NCBI GenBank assembly: GCA_048571215.1
Contig: CP182352.1
Span: forward strand, 1,568,001-1,632,000
Direction of reading: 5' to 3'
Source of the DNA: Halarcobacter sp.
GTDB lineage: Bacteria > Campylobacterota > Campylobacteria > Campylobacterales > Arcobacteraceae
Length of the DNA: 64,000 bases
In this document: one piece after another, positions 3,960 to 24,337 of the stretch
Numbering within the stretch: the stretch's first letter is position 1
Layout of the letters: each line of letters begins with the position of its first letter
The notes under the pieces: model-generated
What the model saw: the letters and a program-made list of their open reading frames with translations, nothing else
Told to the model about the DNA's origin: nothing
Database searches by the model: none
Program-made: the position numbers and the translations under genes

Positions 3960-4541
3960 TTATAAAAAATTCTTAGCTAAAACTTTTTCAAATTTATCTA
4001 ACTCTTCTTTTAAATTTAAATCACCTTTGAAGATATCATGCATTGCATAAGTCTCAAGGGGTTCTAAGCCACAAAATTGGAAGGTTTTATGAACTGCAAC
4101 ATGAGCTTGGTCTAAAGACATTCCATCAAATAGGCTGTTTTTATTATTAAAAGCAGACTCAGGACAATTATATGTTAAAGATAACATATATTTTTTGCCT
4201 TTCATTAAGCCACCACTTCCATATAATTTTGAAGCATCATCTCTACTTCTTCCATCACTTGCAAAGTGTCGTCCTTGTGTAAATGTTTCATCTATATATT
4301 TTTTTGCTATCCAAGGAAGACCCATCCAATAAACTGGATATTGAAATAAAATATAATCAGCCCATTCAAACTTTTCTATCTCTTCTTCTTTCTCATAACC
4401 TTTTTCAATATGTGTTTGTTTTACTTCAAATCCATTTTTAGTAAAAAACTCATTTGCTTTATCTATAATATTTTGTGTTAACTCACCCTTTGCAACCACA
4501 TCATAATATTGATGACCATTTAAAATCAGAACTTTTTTCAT
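3960..4541 (-). CDS. mdaB: Flavodoxin-fold NAD(P)H:quinone oxidoreductase (MdaB-like)
   Basis: QYPVYWMGLPWIAKKYIDE and SDGRSR..YGSGGLMKGKKYMLSLT motifs typical of MdaB. Confidence 0.85.
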   Translation of the reverse strand: MKKVLILNGHQYYDVVAKGELTQNIIDKANEFFTKNGFEVKQTHIEKGYEKEEEIEKFEWADYILFQYPVYWMGLPWIAKKYIDETFTQGRHFASDGRSRDDASKLYGSGGLMKGKKYMLSLTYNCPESAFNNKNSLFDGMSLDQAHVAVHKTFQFCGLEPLETYAMHDIFKGDLNLKEELDKFEKVLAKNFL

Positions 4542-5455
4542 AAAATCTCCTTTTGATTTAATTTAACTCTTTGAAATGAATACTTTGTATTAAACAATAC
4601 TACAGCTACAAAAGCTAACAAACATCCAATTACAGTTGATAACATAATATTTTCACCATATACAAAATAACTTGAAACAATAGCACCTATAGGAACTATA
4701 AACATAAAGACACCTGTTTGATGAGCTCCAATTTTGCTAGCAGAAATAAAAAATATAGTCATACTAAAGGTACCTGAAAATAAACCTATAAAAAGGATAT
4801 TCCACCAAAATACTGTATCTAAACTACTAACTTCAAAAGGATGATAAGGCATTGCAAGAAATAGATTTACTATACTTGTTACACCAAATACAACCAAAGT
4901 ATACAACATAGGGTTTGCTCTTTTTGAAGATTTTTGTGCAAAAATTGTAACTACAGACCAAACTAATGCACACTCTAAAAAATATGAACTATTTAGGTTA
5001 AGAAAAGATAATCCATCCATTGGAACCCTTAATAATATCAAAGCACCAAAGATCCCTACACCTAAAGCTATAACTTGTTTTTTATTAACTTTTGTTCCTA
5101 AAACAGCAATAGATAATAAATAAGTCAAAATTGGTACAATTGCAGTAACCATAGTACCACCATATCCCGCATCACCATGAGATAAGCCTAAAAAAAATAA
5201 AAGATTAAATAAAGCACTTAATAATCCAGCTAAAACCATATAAAGCAAACCAATTTTATCTGTTTTTAATGGAATTTTCATGTAAATTATTACTGGAATA
5301 ATAGATATAAAAGATATAGCATATCGCCAAAATGCTGCCACTTCGGCACTTGAATGTTCCATTACTATTTTTCCTGAAGTCCAAGCAATACCCCAAAAAA
5401 TCATAGCAACAATCATCCCTATAAAATATTTTGTTTTATTTTCTGTTCTAGTCAT
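4538..5455 (-). CDS. DMT/EamA family transporter
   Basis: ~10 TM segments, two EamA halves. Confidence 0.85.
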   Translation of the reverse strand: MTRTENKTKYFIGMIVAMIFWGIAWTSGKIVMEHSSAEVAAFWRYAISFISIIPVIIYMKIPLKTDKIGLLYMVLAGLLSALFNLLFFLGLSHGDAGYGGTMVTAIVPILTYLLSIAVLGTKVNKKQVIALGVGIFGALILLRVPMDGLSFLNLNSSYFLECALVWSVVTIFAQKSSKRANPMLYTLVVFGVTSIVNLFLAMPYHPFEVSSLDTVFWWNILFIGLFSGTFSMTIFFISASKIGAHQTGVFMFIVPIGAIVSSYFVYGENIMLSTVIGCLLAFVAVVLFNTKYSFQRVKLNQKEIL

Positions 5456-5515
5456 ATAATTCCTTAATCTTGACGAAATGCTAATAGAATTATAAACTAA
5501 TAAACTTAATTTTCC

Positions 5516-5537
5516 CTTACTTTACTTTAGGTAAGTA
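5516..5537. promoter_or_regulatory. Possible HxlR-family operator in divergent promoter
   Basis: CTTACTTTAC-TTTAG-GTAAGTA near-palindrome between the DMT operon and hxlR-like gene. Confidence 0.4.
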
Positions 5538-5587
5538 TAGGAAATTTATCTTTATTATGATATAATTCGATTATTAAAGGATTTATT

Positions 5588-5962
5588 ATGTATTATATAA
5601 ATGATAAAGAGTATAAATGTTCCGTATCTGTAACCTTAGATGTATTCAATGATAGATGGAAATTAGCAATTATTTGGCATCTACTAGATGGTAATAAAAG
5701 ATTTGGTGAACTACACGATACTATAAGTGAAATCACTCAAAAAACCTTAACAGTAAAATTAAAAGAGTTAGAAGAAAAAAATATTATAAACAGAGAAGTA
5801 TTTCCAGAAGTTCCTCCCAAAGTTGTTTATTCCCTAACTCCTGTAGGAGAAAAACTTAAAGCTGTTCTTGAAGAGATGTACAAATGGGGTATCTTATATA
5901 CTACAAGCCATGGTAAAGTTACCAAAGAAAATTCTTGTGATGTAAATATTAGCGAGAATTAA
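5588..5962 (+). CDS. HxlR/MarR-DUF24 family redox-sensing regulator
   Basis: N-terminal Cys (YKCSV), RWKLAII, RFGEL, VPPKVVYSLT. Confidence 0.9.
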   Translation: MYYINDKEYKCSVSVTLDVFNDRWKLAIIWHLLDGNKRFGELHDTISEITQKTLTVKLKELEEKNIINREVFPEVPPKVVYSLTPVGEKLKAVLEEMYKWGILYTTSHGKVTKENSCDVNISEN

Positions 5963-6858
5963 TGGAAAACTTTATTCTTATACTTTTAGCCATCGCTTTA
6001 GGTTATGGGGTAAATAGATTAAAAATTTTTTCAAAAGATGCTGCAACTACCCTAAACCAGTTTGTAATTTATATCTCACTTCCTGCAATGATTTTATTGC
6101 AAATACCAAAGTTATCCTTTTCTATGGATATGTTAATTCCTATAATCATAGCTTGGAGTGTTATGGCTATAACTGCCATACTTACATTTTATATATCAAA
6201 ACTTTTAGATTTTTCAAAAGAGGTTACAGGATGTTTGATGTTGGTTACTATTTTAACCAACTCTTCATTTTTAGGTATTCCTATACTAAATGCATATATG
6301 GGAGAAGAGGCTTTACCCTATGTTATTGTATATGACCAATTAGGAACTTTTATAGCCTTGGCTACTTATGGTACATTTATAGCTTCATATTATTCAAGTA
6401 AAAGTGAACTAAGTTTTAAAATTATTGTTTATAAAGTTCTTACTTTTCCACCTTTTCTTTCTCTAGTGGTAGCACTATTTTTAATGGGTGTTGAATTTAA
6501 TGAAGTTATCACAAAAGTACTAGCATCTTTAGCAAGTACCATTGTACCTGTTGCTTTAGTAGCAGTTGGTTTACAACTAAAATTAAAACTTGCAAAAGAG
6601 GAGATAAAACCCTTTGCTGTATCTTTAGGTATAAAACTTATACTTGCTCCAGCGATTGCATTTTTAATATGCTTTTTATTCTCTTGGGATAATAAAGTTG
6701 CAACTATATCTATAATGGAAGCGGGAATGGCACCAATGATAACAGCAGGTGCAATTGCATCTATGGCGGGACTTGCACCAAGACTTAGCTCTGCAATTGT
6801 TGGATATGGAATATTGATTTCATTTTTTACAACTTTTGTATTGTTTAATCTTTTATAA
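5962..6858 (+). CDS. AEC (auxin efflux carrier) family transporter
   Basis: LNQFVIYISLPA, NSSFLGIP, multi-TM. Confidence 0.85.
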   Translation: MENFILILLAIALGYGVNRLKIFSKDAATTLNQFVIYISLPAMILLQIPKLSFSMDMLIPIIIAWSVMAITAILTFYISKLLDFSKEVTGCLMLVTILTNSSFLGIPILNAYMGEEALPYVIVYDQLGTFIALATYGTFIASYYSSKSELSFKIIVYKVLTFPPFLSLVVALFLMGVEFNEVITKVLASLASTIVPVALVAVGLQLKLKLAKEEIKPFAVSLGIKLILAPAIAFLICFLFSWDNKVATISIMEAGMAPMITAGAIASMAGLAPRLSSAIVGYGILISFFTTFVLFNLL

Positions 6859-8006
6859 TGAAAAATACTAAAGAGTTTTATAAAAATCTTAATACTATAA
6901 AAGATTTTTCCCAAATCACACAAGAAAATCTTTATAAAAAACTCCCTAGTGATTGGTATATTTTAGTTAGTGACATAAAAAACTCAACAGTAGCAATTGA
7001 AAATGGGATGTACAAACAAATAAATTTTGTAGCCTCACTTGTAATAATAGGTATAGTAAACTTGGAAAAAAACTTGGAGTTGCCTTTTATCTTTGGTGGT
7101 GATGGAGCTAGTGTTTTAATACCCAAATATCTACTTGAAAAATCAAAACAAGTCCTACTAGAAGCTAAAGAAAAAGCAAAAGAGAACTTTGGATTAGAAC
7201 TTAGAGTTGGAATAGTTCCCCTTAATGAAATAGAACAAAAAGGCAAATCAATATATGTAGCTAAATACTCTATCTCAAAAGATCACAGCCAAGCTATAGT
7301 AAGAGGTGAAGGTCTAAGCTTAGCTGAAGAGTTACTAAAAAATGAAGAAGAAAAATATAGTATAAAAGAGAGCTTGATAAACAATAATTTTGCTAATTTT
7401 AGTGGACTTGAATGTAGATGGCAAGATATACCCTCACCAAAAGATGAAACCTTATCTTTATTGGTAAAGGTTATAAATAAAGAGAATAGTTCACAAATAT
7501 ATAAAGAGTTAATATCAAAAATAGAACAAATAGCAGGAGCTTCAACACAAAGACATCCAATCAAATCTATTGATAACCTAAACCTATCTTTTAATCCTAT
7601 GTATCTAAATGCAGAAGCTTCTACTTTCTCATCAAATATATTTTCAAAGAGTTTTGTATTTTTAAAAATATTTGTAGAAAATATTTTAGGTTTATTTCTT
7701 ATGAATAAAAAAACATCCCAATGGGCTGATTACAAAAATAGAATTTTAAGAACAACAGATACAGAAAAATTTGATGATATGCTTAGGATGATTATAAGTA
7801 CTAATAAAACTCAAACAAAAGAGTTATTAGAGTATTTTGAAACAAAATTTAAAAACAAAGAGATAATTTATGGAGTTCATATCTCAAACTCTGCACTTAT
7901 GACTTGTTTGATATTTGAACGACATGGAAAACATATCCACTTTGTAGATGGTTCAAATGGTGGTTATGCATATGCTTCAAAGCATATGAAATCAAAAACA
8001 ATATAA
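6858..8006 (+). CDS. DUF3095-like protein
   Basis: SDIKNSTVAIENG, FIFGGDGAS, FSGLECRW, HIHFVDGSNGGYA motifs. Confidence 0.75.
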   Translation: MKNTKEFYKNLNTIKDFSQITQENLYKKLPSDWYILVSDIKNSTVAIENGMYKQINFVASLVIIGIVNLEKNLELPFIFGGDGASVLIPKYLLEKSKQVLLEAKEKAKENFGLELRVGIVPLNEIEQKGKSIYVAKYSISKDHSQAIVRGEGLSLAEELLKNEEEKYSIKESLINNNFANFSGLECRWQDIPSPKDETLSLLVKVINKENSSQIYKELISKIEQIAGASTQRHPIKSIDNLNLSFNPMYLNAEASTFSSNIFSKSFVFLKIFVENILGLFLMNKKTSQWADYKNRILRTTDTEKFDDMLRMIISTNKTQTKELLEYFETKFKNKEIIYGVHISNSALMTCLIFERHGKHIHFVDGSNGGYAYASKHMKSKTI

Positions 8007-8067
8007 TTGGTTTATTTTCCATTAATCTATTTAAAGTAAAATTACAAAAAAATTATTAGGAACAATT

Positions 8068-8793
8068 ATGATGAAACTATTAAAAACTTCACTTTTAGGG
8101 CTTGCTTTAGTATCAACTTTAAGTGCAAATGAAAATCTATCAACTAAACAAATTGATGAAATTCAAAATTTACAACTATTTAAAATGGCACATGTAAAAG
8201 TAAATAAAGGTGTAGATGTAGGTTCTGTTTATATGTTAAGTGTGACAGTAAAAGGTAAAGGTGATCAAATATACTTAACAAAAGATAAAAAATATCTAAT
8301 CCCAGGTGATATAATAAATACAAAGACTGGTCAACCACTTATCCTACCAGTTGATTTAAAACCAACACTAGGAAAAGAAACTTTCACTTATGGTACAGGG
8401 AAAGATGAATATGTACTTTTTACAGATCCTGAATGTCCATATTGTAAAAAATTTGAATCTTTTTTACCACAAATTAAAGATAAAGTAAAAATTAGAGTTT
8501 TCTATTTCCCTTTAAGTTTTCATAAAAATGCAGAAGATATCGCTATATATATCTTAAGTCAAAAAACAAATAAAGCTAAAGTAGCAGCTATGGAGACCAC
8601 AAAAGATACTCCTGCATTTAAAAATAGAAAATATGAAAAAACTGAACTAGAGAAGTTAGAAAAACAATTAAATGAACAAATTGCTTTAGGAACTTCACTA
8701 GGTGTTAGTGGAACACCTACAATCTTTGATAAAGATGGGAATAAAGTACAATGGCCAAAAATGCTTCAAAAATATGGAGTAATTCTAAAATAG
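8068..8793 (+). CDS. DsbC/DsbG-type periplasmic thiol:disulfide isomerase
   Basis: Signal peptide, FTDPECPYC, GVSGTPT cis-Pro loop. Confidence 0.88.
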   Translation: MMKLLKTSLLGLALVSTLSANENLSTKQIDEIQNLQLFKMAHVKVNKGVDVGSVYMLSVTVKGKGDQIYLTKDKKYLIPGDIINTKTGQPLILPVDLKPTLGKETFTYGTGKDEYVLFTDPECPYCKKFESFLPQIKDKVKIRVFYFPLSFHKNAEDIAIYILSQKTNKAKVAAMETTKDTPAFKNRKYEKTELEKLEKQLNEQIALGTSLGVSGTPTIFDKDGNKVQWPKMLQKYGVILK

Positions 8794-8807
8794 ATTGTGT
8801 AAACAAT

Positions 8808-9647
8808 CTATTTTAATAAGCTTGAAATCTCTTCAATCTCTTTAATACTTAATTCAAAACTATCTAATAGTAAGTCCTCATTCATATGAGTTTTAGAAGT
8901 GGTACCATTCAATGGTACTACTCCTATTTGATTTAAAAACTTATAAAAAACAACCGCTACACTTTTATCATATTTTGATGCTAAGTAGTTTACAAATTTA
9001 TTTGATAATATATGTGGGTTTGCAGTGAGAGACCAAAAACTCTCATATATTATCCCTTTATCTTTACACCAAGCTCTAATCTCTTTGTCATAAGAGCTTT
9101 GGGCATAAAATCTATTTTGTACAATAGATGGCTTAGTATCTACATTTTTATATAAATATTCTAAAACATCCAAATCATAACAATTACTAATACCCAACTG
9201 TCCCACTTCTTTGTTTTTATAAAAACTACTCATAACTTCCCAAGCTTTTAAAAGTTTAGCTCCTGGAAATATTGGTGAGTGTAAAATATAAGAATCTATA
9301 TAATCAAGTTTTAGATTCTTTTTAGAAGTTTCAAAAGACTTTTTTATCTGAACCTCTAAAGAGTCTTCTGCAAGATAGGGCATGTTATTTATATCTTGTC
9401 CATCTATAGGAGTAAATTTTGTTTGAATATATATCTCCTCCCTTTTAAGTCCTTCATTAAAAGCTTTTGCTATCCCCTCACCCACTAAATCCTCTTGATA
9501 ATGTTTTGGTTGACAAGCTGTATCTATCCCTTTAAAGCCAGTTTTTAAAGCCTCATAAACAAAATCTGCTGTTTGCTGTTTTTTCCAAGCAGTTCCATAA
9601 ATCATATTTGGTATTTTAATATTTTGATTTGATAAAAAATAGTTCAT
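8808..9647 (-). CDS. Aldo/keto reductase
   Basis: YGTAWK, GIDTACQPKHY, IQTKF, YILHSP, LGISN motifs. Confidence 0.88.
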   Translation of the reverse strand: MNYFLSNQNIKIPNMIYGTAWKKQQTADFVYEALKTGFKGIDTACQPKHYQEDLVGEGIAKAFNEGLKREEIYIQTKFTPIDGQDINNMPYLAEDSLEVQIKKSFETSKKNLKLDYIDSYILHSPIFPGAKLLKAWEVMSSFYKNKEVGQLGISNCYDLDVLEYLYKNVDTKPSIVQNRFYAQSSYDKEIRAWCKDKGIIYESFWSLTANPHILSNKFVNYLASKYDKSVAVVFYKFLNQIGVVPLNGTTSKTHMNEDLLLDSFELSIKEIEEISSLLK

Positions 9648-9780
9648 AAATAAATCCTTCGTATTTTTTATTATACTAAAGCAAAAATTCTAATTCTAGC
9701 TTATAAATGTCTATTATATAAACATCCTTTTGTAAGATTAAATTTTAAAACACTATATAATTTCAATAAAAAGAGCAAAA

Positions 9781-9999
9781 ATGGCAAAAGAGTTCAACCC
9801 AGATGATTTTTTTAGTGTAAAAACAGTAGAAGAAATCGTACCAAAATTTAAGCACCTATATAATCAAAACTACCAAGAACTAAGTTTAAATGAAGAACTA
9901 GTAAAACTAAACTACGAAATCACTTCACCTGAGTACAAAGACAAAAGCTTTGCAAAGTTAGAAGAGTATTTTAAATATGAAGTTGATACGATAGTCTAA
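9781..9999 (+). CDS. Small acidic hypothetical protein
   Basis: 72-aa ORF, host-like codon use, upstream GAG RBS-like site. Confidence 0.6.
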   Translation: MAKEFNPDDFFSVKTVEEIVPKFKHLYNQNYQELSLNEELVKLNYEITSPEYKDKSFAKLEEYFKYEVDTIV

Positions 10000-10203
10000 A
10001 ATGTTAAAAATTTTAATCCTATTGATTCTTTTGTAGATATAAATTAATCTGTTTGAAAACATACTGTTTTCCTACATAATAATTATAAAAATATTATATC
10101 ACATAAGTTGGTTTTGTTAAAATTTAATTTTTACTTATAAAATTCGGCTCAATGCAAATAAAAAACCATCAAAAATTGCTTATAATTGAATAATAACGAT
10201 AAT

Positions 10204-10770
10204 TTAAGTATCTAATACCTTCTTTATCAAATATGCACTATGTAATCTTTCAATCAATGTAAATTGATTATTAATAGGAGAATGTATTTTATTTTCGAAC
10301 AGTTTTATCTTTTCTAAGCCTACATTTCCATTTGTATAAATTAAAATAGGTATATTTTCATCAACACTTTTCAATAACTTAAACCATTCTTCTAATGTTT
10401 TATCATCTTCTGCAAATAAAATAATTATAGAAAAGTTATTTAATTTAATTTTTTCATTACAATTATTTATGTTCTTCATATTTCTAAATTTAGAAAATAT
10501 AGCCATATTATTAATTTTATTTTTATTATCATTACAAATTAAAATCTTACTTTCTCTAAAATCTTTAATATTTTTTATATCATTTAAATGCTCTAAAATT
10601 TCATTTCTATATCCATCAAACATTGAAGATAATTTATCTTTAATATTAGCATTAAAATAATCAGAAGTTTTTTTATCACATATAGTCTTAATAAGAAAAT
10701 ATATTAATACACCTAAGAATCCAATAATCAAGGCTAAAACTACTTTTGATATCAAACTTTCAAATTCCAT
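10204..10770 (-). CDS. CRISPR-associated membrane-anchored protein (N-terminal TM helix, helical linker, small alpha/beta receiver/Rossmann-like domain); candidate type III effector
   Basis: TM VVLALIIGFLGVLIYFLI; strands KILIC, FSIIILF, IPILIYT; last gene of the cas operon, ATG 2 nt after upstream stop. Confidence 0.6.
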   Translation of the reverse strand: MEFESLISKVVLALIIGFLGVLIYFLIKTICDKKTSDYFNANIKDKLSSMFDGYRNEILEHLNDIKNIKDFRESKILICNDNKNKINNMAIFSKFRNMKNINNCNEKIKLNNFSIIILFAEDDKTLEEWFKLLKSVDENIPILIYTNGNVGLEKIKLFENKIHSPINNQFTLIERLHSAYLIKKVLDT

Positions 10771-10772
10771 TT

Positions 10773-11832
10773 TTATTTTCCTCTTTTTCCATTAGATTTT
10801 TTTCTCTCAATAAAATAACTTGAATAATCATAAGACTCAATTGAATTATCAATTTTATGAAGGATAGAATTTATCTGAGTATAAATACTTTCTAAATCTT
10901 TTATTTCATCCTTCACAATAACTCTATTATGAGCTATTGCATTTCTTATCTTGGATAGTTTTTTCCACTTCACATCAAATAAATTTTGTTTATTTTCTAA
11001 TAAATTGCAAAAATATAATTCCCAATTTGTTTTAGGTAAAAACTTTTCTAAATCATCTATACAAGTTAATTTTCTCTCTAAGTATCTATTAATCAACTCT
11101 TTTTTTTCTTCTTTCGTTAATCTCTCATATGGTATAAACAAAAAATCCCTTATTTCTTTAAAGTCTACATAATACAAAATATCTCCACACTTGTAATCTA
11201 AATTATTATTTTTTCTTTTAACTCCATTTTTAATTTCTGTGGGAATAGTTTTGTCATACCAATTTGCACCCATAAAACGATACATTACCTTTGTTAAAAC
11301 TTTTCGCATCATAAAGCTTTGGATAATATTCATTACATATATATGCCTCATATGAATTAGATAGAACTAAGGGCTTATTTTTAGTTTCATCCATAATTAC
11401 TTTTTCTAGATACTCTTTTATATTTTCAAATAAACTAATTTTTTTTATACTATAAGGTGTATTCTTATAAGATATTTCCGAATCATCAACTTTTGGTTCA
11501 TTTTCATTTGTGCCAGTAATGTCCATTTCTTCTTCATAGAATAAATCACATTTTTTTTCAATATTATCAAATGTAATGGAAAAAATGAATATTCCTTCTT
11601 TTAGCATTTTAAATTGATAATTAAACTTTATTTCTTCATCATCATTAATAAAAAAATATTTACCATCTTTATTTATTTCTATAGATATATCTATTTCTTT
11701 TCCATCAATTTCAAATCTACTAATACTTTCCAAATTTCCTAAAATAATATGATTAAGAAAAAAATCTTCTTCTTTTTTGATTTTTGAAATAGCATTAACA
11801 TCAATTAAATATTCTAATTCGTAATTATTCAT
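10773..11832 (-). pseudogene. HEPN-domain RNase candidate (Swt1/Apea-like) split into two overlapping ORFs (11254-11832, 10773-11351) by a frameshift near 11310
   Basis: C-terminal ORF has RNAIAH (R-x4-H); YYPKLY in frame 1 is followed after one extra base by MRKVLTKVM in frame 2; second ORF lacks an evident RBS. Confidence 0.7.
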
Positions 11833-11834
11833 AA

Positions 11835-12935
11835 CTATTCTTCTATCTCACACAATACCCATCCAAAAGGTAGTAAGGTATCAATACTATCTTCATTCTC
11901 TCCAAAAAGCCATGTAGTTGTTTCTTCTTCTAAGTTTTCCCAAATATTTTTCTTTCGTTTAGGACCGCCACCACTAACTTTTACTTTTATATTTCTTAAA
12001 CCATCTATTGTTACAGTTCTTGCTCCACTATGTTTTCCAATCCGTAATAAAAATTGATTTTTATTTTTAAACTCAAAGTTTAAATACTTTTCATAAAAAT
12101 CTTCTCTAAAATAATCAATTATAAAATCATATTCTAAAGAATCTTTATATAAATTTTTTTGTCTAAACATAGAATCAAATAATTCATAATAATGATCATT
12201 GCATGATTTTATTATCTTTTCAATTGTTATTTGCTCTTTAGAATTATAATCTTTAATTTGTAAAGATGTTTCAAATTCAGATTTTTCACATATAACTTCA
12301 ATTTTTGTTGATGGTCCTTGATTGTCATCTTCAAATCTCTCTTTATTTAAAGAAAAACCTATAAGAGAGGAACTATTTAGTATTTTTGTATCAGATATAG
12401 AAATATTTTTAAAAATACTTTCACTTGGCATTTGAAAAGTTTCTTTCAATTTTGAGTAGTTACTATTTTTGTAAATATATTCTTGATATGCAGTTGAGAT
12501 TGAGCCTTTGATACTACTTCCTGTAATATATGGATTACCAGTTATTTCATCTTTTATTGTTTTTTGAATTTGAAATTGGTTTATTACAGGTTTTTTTATT
12601 CCTGAGCCTTCAAATTTAGATATTATACCTATTCTCCTATTATACTCTTTTTCGATACCCTGGGTAACTTTCACTTTTAAGGTAAAAATATTTTTTACTA
12701 TATCTTTTCGTTTTTTTATAAATTTATTTATAGAAGATAATGCTAAGTTATCTTCTCTTGTTACTAATTCTTCAAATTTTGTTTTATCTTCTTTTGATAA
12801 ACTTTCAAAAAAACTAAATTCATCAAATTCATAAAGGAAACCATTATCTATAACGAAGTTTGTAGGTTCATATGATTCTCCTATGCCAATATGCATAGGA
12901 GTTAAAAGAGTCATTTTTAATTTATAAGTCTTCAT
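11835..12935 (-). CDS. csm5: Type III-A RAMP Csm5
   Basis: LTPMHIG, PYITGSSIKGSI, LRIGKHSG, LPFGWV. Confidence 0.9.
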   Translation of the reverse strand: MKTYKLKMTLLTPMHIGIGESYEPTNFVIDNGFLYEFDEFSFFESLSKEDKTKFEELVTREDNLALSSINKFIKKRKDIVKNIFTLKVKVTQGIEKEYNRRIGIISKFEGSGIKKPVINQFQIQKTIKDEITGNPYITGSSIKGSISTAYQEYIYKNSNYSKLKETFQMPSESIFKNISISDTKILNSSSLIGFSLNKERFEDDNQGPSTKIEVICEKSEFETSLQIKDYNSKEQITIEKIIKSCNDHYYELFDSMFRQKNLYKDSLEYDFIIDYFREDFYEKYLNFEFKNKNQFLLRIGKHSGARTVTIDGLRNIKVKVSGGGPKRKKNIWENLEEETTTWLFGENEDSIDTLLPFGWVLCEIEE

Positions 12936-13831
12936 TTTATTTCCTTTAAAGGAAAGAGTATAGAATACCCTTGATGTATAGCTTTTTCAAATGATGATAT
13001 ACCTTTAATAGCTTTACCATCATAAAATCTCTCTTTAGTGAATTTATATTTAATCACTGTTGAGTTTTTTGCTAAAAGTATAGGTTTTTTAAATGGATTA
13101 TCATTATCTACTTGGCTGGAGTTTTTACCAAATTTTGTTAAAGGAGAATAATATAATTCTTCACACTCTAAATTTTCCAATGAAATAGAAGATAATGTCA
13201 TATACGTTGTTGTTTCATTTTTTAAACTTATTTCTTCAAAATCTTCTTTTTGAAATATAAACCTACCTTTTCCTATAGAAGTTTTTTTGCCATAACCAAA
13301 CTCTGATATAAACTCCATACACTCTAATAATTTTTCTTTTTTAAATTGTTTTGATAATAAAAAATATATATCAAATTCAAAATCTTTTATTGGATATTCT
13401 TCTATACCAAAAGGTGAGAATCTATCTTTTTCGGTCCTAAAAGCAAGATAATTTAATGAGTTTTTCATAACATTTATTTTTTTATTTAAATCAACTCTTC
13501 CCTCTATATTATTGATATTTTTAGCATTTATATAATTTCCATTTTCTAAATCTTTTATTTTCAGCCACAATTTTTTTGAATTATTTTTCTTTTCTTTACT
13601 ATTTTCTTTTAAAAATTTCATAGGCATATTTGGCTTTGGAAGATAACCTTTAGGGAAGCCATCTGAAACAATCAAAAAGGGATTTTTATCATATTCTAAA
13701 AGTAATTCTTCTAACTTATCTTCACCATACTTATTTTTAATTGCCCAACATATTTGACCAAATAGAGTATCTCCTTGCAAAGATGTTGCAAAATTAGAAA
13801 TAGGCTTTATAGTAAGTTTATAAAGTTTCAT
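12932..13831 (-). CDS. csm4: Type III-A RAMP Csm4 (Cas5 group)
   Basis: GDTLFGQICW, VSDGFP..YLPKP, GYGKKTSIGKGRF; start moved to ATG 13831. Confidence 0.9.
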   Translation of the reverse strand: MKLYKLTIKPISNFATSLQGDTLFGQICWAIKNKYGEDKLEELLLEYDKNPFLIVSDGFPKGYLPKPNMPMKFLKENSKEKKNNSKKLWLKIKDLENGNYINAKNINNIEGRVDLNKKINVMKNSLNYLAFRTEKDRFSPFGIEEYPIKDFEFDIYFLLSKQFKKEKLLECMEFISEFGYGKKTSIGKGRFIFQKEDFEEISLKNETTTYMTLSSISLENLECEELYYSPLTKFGKNSSQVDNDNPFKKPILLAKNSTVIKYKFTKERFYDGKAIKGISSFEKAIHQGYSILFPLKEIK

Positions 13832-13833
13832 CA

Positions 13834-14511
13834 CTATTCCCATTTATCTTTATTACTAAAACTCACTCTTCCATAACCTCTTGTACCGTTTCCACCTAAA
13901 TAATCATCTTCAATAAGTTCTAAACCTTTTTTCACTATATCTTTTAATTTATCTTGTTCATCGTCAAATGGTTTATCTTCAATAATTTTTAAAGAAATAA
14001 TATAATTAAACTTTACCCCCCTACATACTCTTTCAGTTTGTCTTGGATGTTTTGCTGTTCCATTTGTTCTATCTATTACATTTTCATATTTTGATTCGGT
14101 AAGATTTTTTATATCTTTTTGTTCAATAAGACTACAATCAGAAAAGCTAAGTCTTGTAACACCATAATTTTCTCTTTTTTCTTCAGAATTCGCATCTCCA
14201 AAAAGTTTTATTAGATTTACTGCTTTCTCTTTTTTTCCCTCTTTTTCAAAAACTACATCAGAAAAATATTTTGAAGAAAAAGGTTTCCCTTTTTCCTTAT
14301 CATCTCTTCCAACATTAACCAATCCAAAATGCCATTCTAGTAAACTTCTCATCTTACCTTTTATACTACTTCCAGGGACATAAGGTTTATCAGTATTTAT
14401 ATCTTTTATAACACTATTACTAACACCTCCAATTTTCATAACATCATCACCAGCACCAATATGTAAACCTGTTAATACTTCTAACTCTCCAACTAATTTT
14501 AATATTTTCAT
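13834..14511 (-). CDS. csm3: Type III-A RAMP Csm3 (Cas7 group), catalytic Asp apparently replaced by Ser
   Basis: TGLHIGAG, PYVPGSSIKGKMRSLLE, PRQTERV, YLGGNGTRGYG; IGGVSNSVIKD in place of IGxxDxxVIKD; start ATG 14511 with GAGGGG RBS. Confidence 0.93.
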   Translation of the reverse strand: MKILKLVGELEVLTGLHIGAGDDVMKIGGVSNSVIKDINTDKPYVPGSSIKGKMRSLLEWHFGLVNVGRDDKEKGKPFSSKYFSDVVFEKEGKKEKAVNLIKLFGDANSEEKRENYGVTRLSFSDCSLIEQKDIKNLTESKYENVIDRTNGTAKHPRQTERVCRGVKFNYIISLKIIEDKPFDDEQDKLKDIVKKGLELIEDDYLGGNGTRGYGRVSFSNKDKWE

Positions 14512-14512
14512 T

Positions 14513-14875
14513 TTAATCTCTCCCCTCAAAAAAACCTAGCACAGCTTCAAAAAAAAGTTTAAAACAAAGCAAAGTATCTTTTATATTTTCTTTTGTAATT
14601 AAACTTACACATTGACTCATCATATCCTGAAATTCTTTTGATACAACACCCCTACTTCTTGCATATGATACTTTTGAATTTAACATTTTTACAAAAGGAA
14701 TAATATTTTCAACATCTTCATTATTTTTATTCAACTTATTTTCTAAATCCATTATATATTCATAAAAATTTCTAAGTTGTGTTTTTTTAGTTTTACCTAT
14801 AGCTAAAGCCCATTCTTGCGCAACTTTATTAAAAAGTTCTTCATTTTTTGTATAATCTAATACTATATTTTGCAT
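14513..14875 (-). CDS. csm2: Type III-A small subunit Csm2 (Cas11)
   Basis: TQLRNFY, SKVSYARSR, FFEAVLGF; position between cas10 and csm3. Confidence 0.9.
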   Translation of the reverse strand: MQNIVLDYTKNEELFNKVAQEWALAIGKTKKTQLRNFYEYIMDLENKLNKNNEDVENIIPFVKMLNSKVSYARSRGVVSKEFQDMMSQCVSLITKENIKDTLLCFKLFFEAVLGFFEGRD

Positions 14876-16441
14876 CTAGTCTCTCCCTTTATAAATAAAT
14901 TCACTTATTACCATCTTTGAAGCTTTTGGATTTTTCTCTATTTGTGTATCTAAGACTTTATATAAATCCTCATAACTTTCTTTTTTCATATTTCTTCTAA
15001 AACTATAATTTAGTTTTGATTTCCACATAGTAGATAAAACATCACCCTCTTTAACTTTTATTGACATTTCTATTAATTCTAAAAGAGAATAAAAAAATGC
15101 ACTTTTTTTATCTTCTTCTTCGATTTTACTAAGCTCATTTTCTAATACTTTTTTTACATCAATATACTCTTGCCACTTTACAGTTTCATCAAAAAGTGTA
15201 ATAGAGTCTTTATCTTGGTTTTCTTTTGATTTTTCAAGTAACTCTTCAATCTTAGAAGACATATAAGATATTGGTACATTTTCTTTACTTAGCATAATTG
15301 CTACACTTAATGTAAGGTTTTCGTTTGAAAAATTTCTAAATTCTTTATATATTTTTTCTGAAAAATCTATTATTTCATTCCATGCACCTATAATAAAAAA
15401 GTCATCTCCACCTGTAAAAACTACATAAGTATTTTTATAGTTTTCTTCTAAAAATTCTGGTACTTTTTGAGTGAAAAAGTTGTTTAAAGTATAAGAAAAA
15501 TAAATATAGTTTTCATAACTATCAAAAGCATTACTCTTATCTTTAATAAATTCTCCTAAACTATCAACATCACCTTTTATTACAGCTAAGTTTTCTGCAC
15601 CTTCTGTATTTTTTGCTAAATCATCAAAACTATAAGCCACACCTTTTTCGTTTGATTTTACATAAGATTTAATTTTCCAAAATTCTTTTAGGCTTTTAAA
15701 TTCATCATTTTCATTTTCTGAAAATGAAACATGGTAGTTATTGAAAATCTTTATACCACTATCATCATTTGAAATTTTCATATAATTTTTACTTGCTAAA
15801 TTTTCACCTAACTTTATAAAATCGTCACAAATTTTACAAACTTCTTTTTCCTCTTGTATTCTTCTTATTCCACAGGTTTTACATAGTGTTTGATTAGTTG
15901 GAACATCAACATAATCCAAAACTGTATTTTGATTTTGTAAATTAAACTTATTAAACTTTGCAAACTCCATCTTTTCGTTTAGTTTTTCTCTGATTTCTCT
16001 AAATTCTTTAGGATTAATTAGATATGATTTTAAAATATCCATGGATACAAGCTTTACCCCTGCTAGGGCAAAAAAGTTTTCTATAAAGTAATTATCTACT
16101 TCTTTTTGAATCTCTTCAATTTTATTTTTGTCAACTCTTGGAGATAGTATTTCTATTTTTCCAGCCTCACTAAAAATAATATTTTCTTCCTCTAGTCCTA
16201 AAACTTTTAGTATATATAGGGATAATACTTTTGTAAATATTTGTACATAAGCTGATTTTGCTCTTAATACTTTATAAGCTTTTGATGATGGTACATTTTC
16301 AAAAATAAAGTTTTGTATTCCATAAAAATCTGCACAAATGATAGTCAACTCATTGTCTTTTAAAATATCATCTATTTTTAAAATATCTTTTTTAAATAAT
16401 TCACTATATTTTTTATTAAATACATTTTTAACTTCTATCAT
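14876..16441 (-). CDS. cas10: Cas10/Csm1, short form lacking HD domain, cyclase motifs intact
   Basis: ADFYGIQNFIF (Palm1) ~35 residues from the start, CxxC..CxxC, KGDVDSLG and TGGDD (Palm2); only ~521 aa. Confidence 0.93.
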   Translation of the reverse strand: MIEVKNVFNKKYSELFKKDILKIDDILKDNELTIICADFYGIQNFIFENVPSSKAYKVLRAKSAYVQIFTKVLSLYILKVLGLEEENIIFSEAGKIEILSPRVDKNKIEEIQKEVDNYFIENFFALAGVKLVSMDILKSYLINPKEFREIREKLNEKMEFAKFNKFNLQNQNTVLDYVDVPTNQTLCKTCGIRRIQEEKEVCKICDDFIKLGENLASKNYMKISNDDSGIKIFNNYHVSFSENENDEFKSLKEFWKIKSYVKSNEKGVAYSFDDLAKNTEGAENLAVIKGDVDSLGEFIKDKSNAFDSYENYIYFSYTLNNFFTQKVPEFLEENYKNTYVVFTGGDDFFIIGAWNEIIDFSEKIYKEFRNFSNENLTLSVAIMLSKENVPISYMSSKIEELLEKSKENQDKDSITLFDETVKWQEYIDVKKVLENELSKIEEEDKKSAFFYSLLELIEMSIKVKEGDVLSTMWKSKLNYSFRRNMKKESYEDLYKVLDTQIEKNPKASKMVISEFIYKGRD

Positions 16442-17259
16442 CAAATCTCCTTAACCTCTATTTTCCCAAGTCCAAAAACTGTTTGTTTTCCTACATTTAA
16501 TAGTTCTGCTATTTTTAGTATTTTATAGTTTTGTTCACTTAAATCTTTTACAACTAAACTTCCCATTACACCATCAAATTTCATTTTTGTTTTTTGGGGA
16601 CTACTATATCTTGTAAGATTTTTTTTATAGAGGTTTTTATTTACTACTTTATACTCTTTTGTTACTTCTAGTTTTGGCGCATTTGGATAGATGTATTCAT
16701 ATCTTTTTCTACTTGAAAGCAAGATATCAAAAAGGTCTAAACTATCATCATATATAAGTTTATTTTCTTTTTTTATTCTTATGGGTGTTAGTATATTTAT
16801 AGCTACGTCTTTTTTTGTTTCACTCTCTTTATACTCTTTTTGTGTAATATTTTTTAAATCAAAGGTTTCGTTTTCATAAACCAAAATATCATTTACATAT
16901 ATTTTAAACTCATTAAAATACTTATTCTCTTTTCCAAGACCAATAGAAGTTAATAACTTATGAAAACTTGAAAGTATAAAAGGAAGTTGTTCACATACCT
17001 CATCAAAAAGATAAAAAGAAAAATCATAAGATTTGTTGCCAAGAGATATATCAAATCTATATTTATGATAATTATCTTCCAAATAAAATGTGTAAAAAAG
17101 ACAATTATCTTTTGCAAAACAATTTTCACATTCGTATGTTGGATTTATGCAAACCACTTTTTTAAGAGCATACCCCAAAGCCCCACGAAGCTGACTTCCA
17201 GTAAAATAAGGAGGCATATACTCTTCATATATTTTTATATCTATTTTGTAATATTTCAT
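16441..17259 (-). CDS. cas6: CRISPR endoribonuclease Cas6
   Basis: GSQLRGALG, Cys cluster, C-terminal VGKQTVFGLG Gly-rich loop. Confidence 0.9.
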   Translation of the reverse strand: MKYYKIDIKIYEEYMPPYFTGSQLRGALGYALKKVVCINPTYECENCFAKDNCLFYTFYLEDNYHKYRFDISLGNKSYDFSFYLFDEVCEQLPFILSSFHKLLTSIGLGKENKYFNEFKIYVNDILVYENETFDLKNITQKEYKESETKKDVAINILTPIRIKKENKLIYDDSLDLFDILLSSRKRYEYIYPNAPKLEVTKEYKVVNKNLYKKNLTRYSSPQKTKMKFDGVMGSLVVKDLSEQNYKILKIAELLNVGKQTVFGLGKIEVKEI

Positions 17260-17262
17260 CAA

Positions 17263-17478: not shown

Positions 17479-19597
17479 GTAGAGACCTGACATATAAGGG
17501 ATTAAAACGACTATCAAGTGCTTTTATATTTTTATTATCTACTGTAGAGACCTGACATATAAGGGATTAAAACTTAAAAACAGACATCTATATTCTCCTT
17601 ATTGTTTGTGTAGAGACCTGACATATAAGGGATTAAAACTTACTAGAGCTGTAAATTTTACAGAGTTACCAGAGTGTAGAGACCTGACATATAAGGGATT
17701 AAAACGAGTTATTATGAATTTTTATTGATTTTGTTAAAAAGTAGAGACCTGACATATAAGGGATTAAAACTATTATTACTTAATATTTTATTTTATAACA
17801 ATTTTTCTGTAGAGACCTGACATATAAGGGATTAAAACTACTATTTAAAGCCATGATATCCCCCTTACTTTTCTGTAGAGACCTGACATATAAGGGATTA
17901 AAACGTAGATAACTAAACATTCTATTATTTTATCAACTTGTAGAGACCTGACATATAAGGGATTAAAACCTGGGTGAAAAACTTGGAGTGGTGGGAAGAA
18001 ATATGTAGAGACCTGACATATAAGGGATTAAAACAAATAAGATAATCCCTCTGCAATAGTATTAAATCCGTAGAGACCTGACATATAAGGGATTAAAACT
18101 GAAAAAGAGAAACACTAGCAGAATGAATATAATTACGTAGAGACCTGACATATAAGGGATTAAAACATTTGTAATTAATCCATATCTTGTAATGCTCCTT
18201 GTAGAGACCTGACATATAAGGGATTAAAACGCATCTTTGTATATGTCTTTCCATATCCAAAAAGCTAGTAGAGACCTGACATATAAGGGATTAAAACATA
18301 ATCACCAATTAGCTTTAAATCTTCTTTTTTATAGGTAGAGACCTGACATATAAGGGATTAAAACCAATTTTACTTAGTTCAAAAAGACTGTAATCTTCAT
18401 TGTAGAGACCTGACATATAAGGGATTAAAACTCCACTAAGTCTTTTTTGGAAGTCTTTAAGTTAAGAGTAGAGACCTGACATATAAGGGATTAAAACATG
18501 ACACTTGAAACTTTTTTTAACACAAACGAAACAGTAGAGACCTGACATATAAGGGATTAAAACTTAAAAGCGTGAAGTTGATCTATTAGTTCTGTACCGT
18601 AGAGACCTGACATATAAGGGATTAAAACTATAGTTCCACATCTTTTGTCTAATACTTATTTTGTAGAGACCTGACATATAAGGGATTAAAACATTAAAGG
18701 TTGAGCTGTATCATAGTTTACTCCTAGTGTAGAGACCTGACATATAAGGGATTAAAACTAGCATATGCTATTTTGTTTTCGACACTAGATAAGTAGAGAC
18801 CTGACATATAAGGGATTAAAACTTTACATAAGTTTCATTTAGTGTTAAATATGCTTCTGTAGAGACCTGACATATAAGGGATTAAAACTTTGAAAATGCA
18901 AAAGGTCTTTTATGTTCCGCATCATTGTAGAGACCTGACATATAAGGGATTAAAATTGAAATAAAATTTATCAAACCAAATAATAAACCTAGTAGAGACC
19001 TGACATATAAGGGATTAAAATGCAGATACAACACAAAAACCATTATCTTTGAATGCTGTAGAGACCTGACATATAAGGGATTTAAAATACCTATGCCTAA
19101 TTGTTGTCTACCTTGTACTTGTAGTAGAGACCTGACATATAAGGGATTAAAATTTCCAAATATGGTGAACAGTAGGTGCAATATCATGTAGAGACCTGAC
19201 ATATAAGGGATTAAAATAATTTTACTGTTGCACTTACACTAGTTGCAGCCATTGTAGAGACCTGACATATAAGGGATTAAAATAATGATGTAAATACTCG
19301 TAATCAGGACAATCAAACTGTAGAGACCTGACATATAAGGGATGTTTTTAATAAATAAGGAATAACGAATAATGAATAATCTTCTTCAACTTTTCATTTT
19401 TCACTTTTCATTATTCATTTATATTGACCTGACATATAAGGAATGTTTTTAATGAATAATGAATAATCTTCTTTAATTTTTCATTTTTCACTTTTCATTA
19501 TTCATTTATATTGACCTGCCATATAAGGGATTAAAACGATACACACATATCAAATTGTTTCTCTTCAAAGCTAGTAGAGACCTGACATATAAGGGAT
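17479..19597 (+). CRISPR. CRISPR array: 30-bp repeat GTAGAGACCTGACATATAAGGGATTAAAAC, 28 full repeats plus disrupted trailer repeats, 29 spacers of ~34-38 bp
   Basis: Repeats counted by eye from 17479 to 19254, partial copies at 19320, 19426, 19513, 19574; 3' end ATTAAAAC resembles the Cas6 8-nt handle. Confidence 0.98.
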
Positions 19598-19677
19598 GTT
19601 TTTAATGAATAAGGAATAACGAATAATGAATAATCTTCTTCAATTTTTCATTTTTCACTTTTCATTATTCATTACTA
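19344..19677. repeat. Three copies of a 68-82-bp heptamer-based inverted-repeat element interleaved with CRISPR repeat fragments
   Basis: GTTTTTAAT(GAATAAT-like)n-CTTCTT-(TTTTCAY)n TATTCATT starting at 19344, 19445, 19598. Confidence 0.88.
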
Positions 19678-22721: not shown

Positions 22722-23096
22722 ATGATAATAAAAAACTTAAGAATAGAAAATGGTTGGTCACAAGAAAAATTAGCTGAAATCACTGGATTGAGTTTAAGAA
22801 CTATACAAAGAGTAGAAAAAGAGGACAAAGCTAGCTTGGAATCTCTAAATCTTTTAGCTAATGCTTTTAGCTTAGATATTAAACAACTACAAGATAAATT
22901 AAAAAATAAACCTTTTAAAACTGAAACTGAAACTAAAAATAATCATAAGAAAATAATCACAATTTTTATTGCTGTAAACTTACTACTTATTACTATAAAT
23001 CTTTTAACAAACTCTAGTCACTTATGGTTTATCTATCCATTATTAGGATGGGGAATTCCACTTTTTTATAAAATATATATAAAAGAAAAGCTTTAA
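22722..23096 (+). CDS. XRE-family HTH protein with C-terminal 2TM domain
   Basis: GWSQEKLAEITGLSLRTIQRVE; WFIYPLLGWG. Confidence 0.88.
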   Translation: MIIKNLRIENGWSQEKLAEITGLSLRTIQRVEKEDKASLESLNLLANAFSLDIKQLQDKLKNKPFKTETETKNNHKKIITIFIAVNLLLITINLLTNSSHLWFIYPLLGWGIPLFYKIYIKEKL

Positions 23097-24337
23097 AATC
23101 TACTATTTTTTATCACTTTTTCTATCTTTTTTTTATCCACTTTAAGATTTTTTGCTTCTTGTTTAAATCTACTTATAAAATACTCTTTTATGTTTTTTAC
23201 TAACTCCTCTATCTCTTTGTCACTTCCTATTGAAAACATCTTTGAAACAGCTTTTATATCCTCTATACTAAAATCATCTCTTTTTCCATTTATACTCATT
23301 TGGTGTTTTGCTGTATAGTCATTGCCTTTATTATATGTGATATCATATAAAGGTGCAGTTTTCCAAACTCCTTTTTCATCCATCAAAAAAGAGAAGTTTT
23401 TTGTATGATCATCTTGATTACAAGTAATTACATTGTATAACATATGGATAAATGCACTCTCCAATTGCTGTCTATCTTTAGTAAGGTATTCAACTACTCT
23501 TAAATACTCTTCGTAAGAGTAAGAACCTGGTATATTAAAATTTGTATGAGTAAGCCCGCATAAAGAGTGCATATGTATTTTTTTATCTTCTATAATATCA
23601 AATCTTTTTACTAAAAGATGACTAAAATCTCTTTCGTGAAAAATCTCTACATCTGCTACGTTTAAATCAAGCTCTTTTGCTATTTTCATATAGATATACT
23701 CAACTTTTCCATAATCTGCTGGAACATAATCTTTTCCAACACCATCAAATTTTATAAGATAGTTCTCAAAACCTTTTTTAAAAGGTAGTCTTCCTGATAC
23801 TATTTCATTTGTAGTTTTATTCCATTGAATAACCGCTTTTGCTCTAGCTCCCCCTGCACTTCCTCCTGATGATATTAGTTCAGGAATTGCAACTGTAATA
23901 TCCCCTTTTATAATCTTTCTAGCATCATCAACCAAAGATTTTATCTCTAAAGATTCTTTTAAAATCTCTGTTGGTTCATTTGGAATATACTCCAAAGCTC
24001 CCATACCAGTTTTTCCTATATATGCTAACTTTTGTATTGATGATAATTCATACTCATTTATCCCTTTTTTTGCATAAAATCTTTTTATAACCTCATTTCC
24101 AAATTTATCAGGTAAAGAATCAAAAAATACTCCAGCTAAACCTTCAAAAAATCTATCATCACTATTGTTATAAACAGCAGTTGTCTCTAAAGGCAATTTT
24201 ATAGGGGATATCTCTAAACCACTATTTTTAAACTCATCTTCATATTCAAAATATATATTATCTTTCTCATCTAAAGATAAAAACCCAACTATTTGCCCAT
24301 AAAGTTGTACAATCAAAGAATCATTATTCGTTTTCAT
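23093..24337 (-). CDS. hipA: HipA-family Ser/Thr kinase toxin
   Basis: DSLPDKFG, GSAGGARAKA P-loop, NQDDHTKNFSF, APLYDIT. Confidence 0.92.
   Translation of the reverse strand: MKTNNDSLIVQLYGQIVGFLSLDEKDNIYFEYEDEFKNSGLEISPIKLPLETTAVYNNSDDRFFEGLAGVFFDSLPDKFGNEVIKRFYAKKGINEYELSSIQKLAYIGKTGMGALEYIPNEPTEILKESLEIKSLVDDARKIIKGDITVAIPELISSGGSAGGARAKAVIQWNKTTNEIVSGRLPFKKGFENYLIKFDGVGKDYVPADYGKVEYIYMKIAKELDLNVADVEIFHERDFSHLLVKRFDIIEDKKIHMHSLCGLTHTNFNIPGSYSYEEYLRVVEYLTKDRQQLESAFIHMLYNVITCNQDDHTKNFSFLMDEKGVWKTAPLYDITYNKGNDYTAKHQMSINGKRDDFSIEDIKAVSKMFSIGSDKEIEELVKNIKEYFISRFKQEAKNLKVDKKKIEKVIKNSRF

Follow-up and report, generated by a model that had tools for sequence, protein, structure and literature searches.

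Gene content of the locus

The 64,000-nucleotide stretch of DNA analysed here (the window) carries on its minus strand an operon with the gene order cas6, cas10, csm2, csm3, csm4 and csm5, which encodes an intact type III-A (Csm) CRISPR system that has apparently lost both of its intrinsic nucleases, the HD DNase of Cas10 and the RNase of Csm3 (Table 1). A gene for a small membrane protein, the candidate effector, is found after csm5 and two extra open reading frames (ORFs), and the CRISPR array lies upstream of cas6 in divergent orientation to the operon. A related locus, without the two extra ORFs, was recovered from Malaciobacter canalis ADH2-947 (locus L005) in a scan of one genome per species; in neither locus is any of the six cas genes or the effector gene interrupted.

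Table 1. Features of the type III-A locus, in window positions.
Feature	Positions	Strand	Length	Evidence and remarks
Membrane protein, candidate signalling effector (Cam2-like)	10204..10770	-	188 aa	AlphaFold2 model and fold matches
Swt1-like HEPN protein	10773..11351	-		weak PF18731; probable start at residue 27
Orphan ORF	11254..11832	-	192 aa	Atlas model, pLDDT 0.35
csm5	11835..12935	-	366 aa	TIGR01899, 41 bits (cut-off 38.3)
csm4 (Cas5)	12932..13843	-	303 aa	TIGR01903, 102.5 bits (cut-off 55)
csm3 (Cas7 backbone subunit)	13834..14511	-	225 aa from ATG	TIGR02582, 195 bits (cut-off 90)
Ser31 codon AGT, at the catalytic Asp position	14419..14421	-		structure and homologue alignments
csm2, small subunit (Cas11)	14513..14875	-	120 aa	TIGR01870, 58.2 bits (cut-off 30.6)
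cas10/csm1, without HD nuclease domain, GGDD intact	14876..16444	-	522 aa	TIGR02578, 370.6 bits
cas6	16441..17262	-	273 aa	PF10040 CRISPR_Cas6, 40.8 bits (cut-off 25); TIGR01877, 43.5 bits, below cut-off of 58.65
CRISPR array	17479..19603	+		31 repeat copies allowing up to 6 mismatches, 22 perfect

The window Cas10 covers only positions 225-750 of the 753 positions of the TIGR02578 profile, and its residue 29 aligns with residue 243 of the 756-aa Cas10 of L. lactis. Its palm domain was matched by PF22335 (106 bits) and its FTGGDDFF motif lies over the GGDD of the L. lactis protein, whilst a Pfam search of the window Cas10 returned no HD domain (PF01966).

Within three mismatches, 28 repeat copies were counted in the array, with spacers of 34-38 nt and with degenerate copies at the far end; the M. 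canalis array holds about 40 copies of a related repeat. No further copies of the III-A repeat were found elsewhere in the genome. None of 29 spacers had a near-full match elsewhere in the genome, where no identity exceeded 24 bases, and a megablast search of a phage collection returned no match for the array. The III-A locus itself contains neither cas1 nor cas2. The only cas1 of the genome is carried by a type I-B locus (cas6, cas7, cas5, cas3, cas4, cas1 and cas2) situated approximately 1.67 Mb away (L059, G000:C1:3243000-3262900), the array of which has a 30-nt repeat identical to the III-A repeat at 20 of its 30 bases; this module may supply spacers to the III-A array.

Two other parts of the window deserve mention. 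A DUF3095 protein (428 bits) is encoded on the plus strand at 6858-8006, about 2 kb beyond the effector gene, and no link of DUF3095 to CRISPR was seen in M. canalis. At 22722-24337, on the minus strand, a HipA-like kinase (PF07804, 149 bits) adjoins a divergent gene for a protein with HTH_3 and two transmembrane segments; the pair resembles a HipBA toxin-antitoxin module, its partner being unusual in its membrane anchor.

Serine at the catalytic position of Csm3

The csm3 gene sits between csm2 and csm4 in the cas10 operon. Its ATG at 14511 (MKILKL...), from which residue numbers are counted here, is preceded by a Shine-Dalgarno-like purine-rich run (GAGGGGAGAG), and an alternative TTG start would add six residues. 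From 14445 to 14401 the minus strand reads DVMKIGGVSNSVIKD, with GGT GTT AGT AAT AGT GTT at its centre. The claim from which this analysis set out, that the catalytic aspartate of Csm3 is here a serine at residue 31, was confirmed by HMMER alignments to solved structures, in which the window motif IGGVSNSV falls without gaps over IGAIDSPV of S. epidermidis Csm3 (7uzw), placing Ser31 opposite the aspartate. The best solved relative, Serratia Csm3 (9zs2, chain 9zs2_E; E = 1.1e-39), presents IGGIASAV at the same place, with Ser31 opposite an alanine; this alanine is reported to be the engineered D34A substitution of 'dCsm3', D34 being called the catalytic residue (PMC13060164). As the overlay is ungapped both on the natural aspartate and on the engineered D34A position, Ser31 occupies the catalytic position. 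The catalytic aspartate of Csm3, which lies in the loop that follows the first strand (D32 in S. epidermidis, D34 in Serratia), is absent from the window protein and its column is filled by Ser31.

Two ways in which the RNase could have been retained despite the substitution were considered, and both appear unlikely. A second Cas7 that could supply it in trans was not found, a search of the genome for Csm3/Cmr4-like genes having given a single match. Neighbouring aspartates had also been put forward as possible substitutes; the earlier note had numbered the serine correctly and these aspartates as 23 and 24, whilst they are D22 and D23. Both are invariant in all 116 Asp-type relatives as well and so do not represent compensation, and the Serratia protein, which by HMMER alignment has an aspartate at the position equivalent to D22, is nonetheless described as RNase-dead when D34 is changed to alanine (PMC13060164).

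Distribution and phylogeny of the serine

A search of a 5.8-billion-protein collection with the window Csm3 gave 5110 matches at E <= 1e-10, and the best 120 of these 5110 were aligned with MAFFT. The catalytic column held aspartate in 116 of the best 120 and serine in four, of which one was the window protein and the others were three clusters with 70-75% identity. The Csm3 of M. canalis (76% identity) likewise has serine, encoded by the identical AGT codon. Another 34 genomic loci were then added, their sources being 401 genomes of the order that were searched, the first search for relatives, one metagenome contig and a related genome designated G205. When all sequences were pooled, serine was found in 5/5 members of one clade and aspartate in 150/150 sequences outside it. 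The clade members are 70-97% identical to one another, and genomic context was in hand for two of the five (the window and M. canalis).

In a FastTree phylogeny the serine clade was monophyletic with a support of 1.0, on a stem 0.37 substitutions per site long; an Asp-type protein is its sister, and its nearest Asp-type neighbours are metagenome proteins. A metagenome scan yielded Asp-type loci only, and the system was present in none of 24 other genomes of the same genus that were searched. Assembled contigs from four Logan sequencing runs span csm3 and show no differing letter at the Ser31 codon; the runs represent two samples of a single study and, as they probably come from the source of the window DNA, are not independent. 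The substitution, D31S, is accordingly a feature of a lineage and not a quirk of one strain, which settles the question that the earlier note had left between the two. Among the sequences collected, the serine type is confined to a small group of marine Campylobacterota of the Malaciobacter-type lineage.

The HD-less form of Cas10 has a different distribution. It was found in M. canalis (527 aa) and also in five Asp-type loci (502-533 aa; one genus accounts for three of the five), and 24/24 of the next-best Cas10 homologues after the relatives from the serine clade were proteins of 480-544 aa without PF01966. A strict linkage between the serine and loss of the HD domain is ruled out by these five loci and 24 homologues. 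Judged from the sequences compared, the HD loss is older and wider than D31S and common to a large Campylobacterota Cas10 lineage.

Loci of Asp-type relatives showed some further variation. Three HD-less, Asp-type III-A loci from one genus (L039, L045 and L047) carry an RT-Cas1 fusion; PADLOC recognized no effector among their submitted flanking ORFs, and family-less proteins of 816, 182 and 125 aa encoded in the flanks are candidate effectors. In another Asp-type locus (L037, G077:C1:1290000-1309900), both cas10 and cas6 are broken into two ORFs apiece whilst the csm genes, csx1, csx20 and csx23 are still open, and its effector module appears to be partly decayed.

Maintenance of the serine-type proteins

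A total of 64 columns were invariant in the 116 Asp-type Csm3 proteins, and the four Ser-type database proteins all have the same residue at 61 of these. Another of the 64 was altered in a single Ser-type protein, and only two were altered in all four, namely D31S and S210T, the latter being a conservative change in a glycine-rich loop. No acidic residue had been gained at a conserved Csm3 column in the serine clade. Aspartate or glutamate shared throughout the clade and uncommon elsewhere occurred only at position 9, where other relatives often have glutamate, and within two insertions particular to the lineage, one near position 73 and one near 111.

Between the window and M. canalis, dN/dS (Nei-Gojobori) was 0.21 for csm3 and ranged from 0.19 to 0.35 over all seven shared genes, ratios that are rough owing to the high synonymous divergence in this AT-rich DNA. 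The operon is under purifying selection. The conserved arginine and lysine columns of Csm2 were retained, with residue 117 and Q92 the only near-invariant Csm2 columns to be altered; retention of these basic residues would fit RNA binding and equally well retained catalysis. At residue 117 of Csm2, lysine is present in 13 of 14 Asp-type proteins and glutamate in both Ser-type loci (window and M. canalis).

A REC-fold membrane protein as candidate effector

Downstream of csm5, the two Ser-type loci of known context have as their last conserved gene one for a protein of 183-188 aa (57% identity between the two), which follows csm5 directly in M. canalis and is separated from it by the two extra ORFs in the window. 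No match that would give this family a name was obtained from NCBIfam, Pfam or PADLOC. The window protein is laid out as an N-terminal transmembrane helix, a long helix and a C-terminal REC-fold domain. Its one hydrophobic segment comprises residues 10-28 (Kyte-Doolittle mean over 19 residues, 2.68), and each of eight family members checked has a single N-terminal hydrophobic 19-mer scoring above 1.6. An AlphaFold2 model built from five sequences (pLDDT 78.5) shows a helix from residue 2 to 64 followed by an alpha/beta domain; in an all-against-representatives structure search, residues 70-188 or thereabouts matched REC domains with Z scores of 10-12 over about 115 residues, the REC domain of AmiR aligning in VIA-align with Z 11.9 and an rmsd of 3.0 over 119 residues. 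The best Foldseek matches were also REC domains, at E values of only about 5e-3. The family is small, numbering five close members and, at E <= 0.001, 16 cluster representatives; one of the latter, a repetitive protein of 820 aa, is probably spurious.

A type III effector with this architecture has been named previously. Cam2 is described by Hoikkala et al. (2024) as an uncharacterised protein with transmembrane and REC parts, a predicted cA3 sensor found in 26 type III loci (PMC11229360). By architecture and modelled fold, the window protein is probably Cam2-like. Cam1, which combines transmembrane and CARF parts, was rejected as an identification, as the fold search gave REC domains and not CARF.

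The Asp-type relatives have other accessory genes. From 14 of their loci, 54 of 104 candidate flanking ORFs were run through PADLOC, which recognized Csx1/Csm6-type CARF-HEPN proteins in 9/14 loci, Csx20 in 5/14, WYL proteins in 4/14, Csx23 in 2/14 and CARF-RelE in 1/14; a profile of the REC-effector family gave no match to the ORFs of the same 14 loci. A strict linkage between the serine and the REC effector is nevertheless ruled out, since in G205 an effector of this kind occurs together with an Asp-type Csm3. This locus (L057, G205:C1:680600-700500, positions 4007-10320) is a second III-A system with a transmembrane and REC gene after csm5. Its cas10 is, by eye, closely similar to that of M. 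canalis and is interrupted by an in-frame TAA, and its Csm3 (317 aa) is divergent, contains a large insertion and has kept the aspartate, a combination that looks like an exchange of the csm2-5 module under one Cas10 lineage.

Both extra ORFs of the window are absent from the M. canalis locus. The orphan ORF belongs to no NCBIfam or PADLOC family and matched Pfam only below threshold (Lipin_N, 19.6 bits against a cut-off of 25), and its membership in the III-A system is uncertain. The HEPN protein has an R-x4-H motif, an Atlas feature score of 0.93 and structural TM scores of up to 0.77 to HEPN clusters, and in PADLOC it weakly matched Csx1/Csm6 at their HEPN end. This protein may act as a further effector or have been inserted without relation to the system, and the two ORFs together (10773-11832) may constitute another pair of effectors or a toxin-like module that was inserted.

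Proposed function and alternative explanations

The conserved Cas7 aspartate is reported to coordinate Mg2+ at the scissile phosphate, such that its mutation abolishes each cut (PMC10168453), and the synthesis of cyclic oligoadenylates (cOA) is described as being switched on when the target is bound and off as the cleaved target leaves (PMC6053304). We therefore regard the locus as probably encoding a natural Csm complex that binds its target and does not cut it, the only output of which would be cyclic-nucleotide signalling to a membrane effector, with dormancy or abortive infection as the result. On this proposal, the Ser31 complex would assemble on crRNA and bind complementary transcripts, and target binding would activate the Cas10 cyclase, the GGDD motif of which is intact. 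The bound RNA would be cut very slowly or not at all, and the complex would not release itself by cutting, so that signalling would last for as long as the target stays bound. The REC-fold protein encoded after csm5 would probably read the signal, presumably a cyclic nucleotide, and the ensuing damage to the membrane would lead to dormancy or abortive infection rather than to clearance. That a non-cutting backbone would hold target RNA and keep Cas10 active, as the earlier note proposed, agrees with the behaviour of engineered aspartate mutants, and a reading in which signalling is the only output is strengthened by the presence at the locus of a Cas10 without HD domain and of a Cam2-like membrane protein.

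The main rival to this bind-but-do-not-cut reading is that Ser31 Csm3 still cuts, more slowly or by a different chemistry, for instance through a water-bridged metal or through catalysis by RNA and arginines, in which case the locus would be an HD-less III-A system with a tuned off-switch. Type III active sites have been characterised as protein-assisted ribozymes to which RNA geometry and arginines also contribute (PMC10168453), for which reason a change from aspartate to serine might lower the rate rather than abolish cleavage, and natural variation in rate does exist: after 60 min, approximately 50% of the target remains uncut by the HD-less Cmr complex of V. metoecus, in which the catalytic aspartate is kept (PMC8682760). 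The remainder of the active-site neighbourhood of Csm3 is also conserved in the serine clade, as are the basic residues of Csm2. Set against these points, aspartate is invariant in 150/150 relatives outside the clade, and the serine, which required a change of two bases, has been retained through 25-30% protein divergence. The side chain of serine, furthermore, offers no carboxylate for Mg2+. Mutants with alanine in place of the aspartate were reported without detectable cleavage in Serratia, in V. metoecus Cmr and in III-Dv (PMC13060164, PMC8682760, PMC10168453). On balance, we consider continued cutting unlikely, though worth keeping in view.

A second alternative, that the locus is a decaying or domesticated remnant in which D31S is one of several inactivating lesions and which confers no working immunity, is improbable. 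The nonsense codon in cas10 of the related G205 locus indicates that the lineage can decay, and the lack of cas1 and cas2 at the III-A locus, of phage-collection matches for the array and of the system in 24 other genomes of the genus could be read in the same way. Such a remnant would hardly be expected to keep six cas genes and an effector gene open in two loci at dN/dS of 0.19-0.35 with 61/64 invariant Csm3 columns intact; the arrays are long (22 perfect repeats in the window, about 40 repeats in M. canalis), and the genome also carries an adaptation module of type I-B with a partly shared repeat. A sequencing or assembly artefact, which had been judged unlikely at the outset given that GAT to AGT needs two changes, can be dismissed in view of the same AGT in the independently sequenced M. 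canalis genome, the serine in three further database clusters and the four-run contigs.

The bind-but-do-not-cut reading can be extended to that of a nuclease-free RNA sensor, the sole output of which is a nucleotide signal to a Cam2-like effector and the off-switch of which has moved away from Csm3, to dissociation of the target, to host RNases or to the death or dormancy of the cell; the evidence leaves this fuller version evenly balanced. A complex that never cuts might be costly, given that an engineered RNase-dead Cmr4 in S. islandicus was reported to cause autoimmunity, with dormancy or death that required the CRISPR arrays as well as Cas10 activities (PMC9368842). Indications that the system is active are present in the array of at least 28 repeats in the window and of about 40 in M. 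canalis, and in 29 spacers without a near-full self-match.

Cleavage of target RNA by Cas7 is regarded as the built-in timer of type III signalling, and a lineage that has the cyclase and lacks both this timer and the HD nuclease raises the questions of how signalling is switched off and how autoimmunity is avoided. The Cas7 aspartate has been reported as conserved wherever the cyclase is active, with natural losses only in the non-signalling III-G, III-H and type VII systems, and RNA cleavage in other variants has been argued from its conservation (PMC12669027). A full-text search of a library of open-access papers and preprints found no paper on a naturally occurring type III system that has a competent cyclase and lacks the Cas7 aspartate, and by term counts the main text of a large type III survey mentions none of Csm3, Cmr4 or Cas7 (PMC11229360). 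The M. canalis locus, with seven genes and an array, would be a compact setting in which to test a Cam2-type membrane effector.

Comparison with known systems

The window locus shares its gene order with the canonical III-A Csm systems of S. epidermidis, S. thermophilus, L. lactis and Serratia (7uzw, 6ifk, 6xn3, 9zs2), as well as the GGDD motif, the adjacent array and the same protein families, cas6 being recognized in the window through PF10040. It departs from them in the serine that replaces the catalytic aspartate of Csm3, in a Cas10 without the HD domain of roughly 220 residues, and in a putative effector that is a small REC-fold membrane protein instead of Csm6 or NucC. With Cam2, this protein has in common an N-terminal transmembrane helix, a C-terminal REC fold, a type III locus and no histidine kinase beside it, a likeness of architecture and fold.

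The III-G, III-H and type VII systems resemble the window in that the catalytic aspartates of Cas7 are not conserved, although in these the Cas10 cyclase is inactivated or Cas10 has been replaced, and cleavage is attributed to the HD domain or to Cas14 (PMC12669027). The window has an intact cyclase motif and no replacement nuclease in the conserved core of the locus; where III-G and III-H combine an inactivated cyclase with an active HD domain, the GGDD is intact here and the HD domain is absent.

The Cmr system of V. metoecus is, like the window, naturally HD-less, and the cleavage of its target is described as unusually slow, from which its authors proposed a prolonged activation of the cyclase leading to dormancy or abortive infection (PMC8682760). 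That system differs in belonging to subtype III-B, in having kept its catalytic aspartate with which it still cuts, and in using a DNase effector (PMC8682760).

The nearest experimental model is provided by engineered RNase-dead complexes (Csm3 D32A, D33A or D34A, and Cmr4 D26A), which have had removed the same residue that is missing from the window Csm3 and were reported to show no target cleavage together with more or longer cOA synthesis. These carry an alanine introduced in the laboratory, whilst the window carries a natural serine that has been kept by selection throughout a clade and that occurs together with a Cas10 also lacking its HD nuclease. The Ser-type Csm would in this respect be a natural counterpart of the dCsm3 scaffolds that have been engineered for RNA detection.
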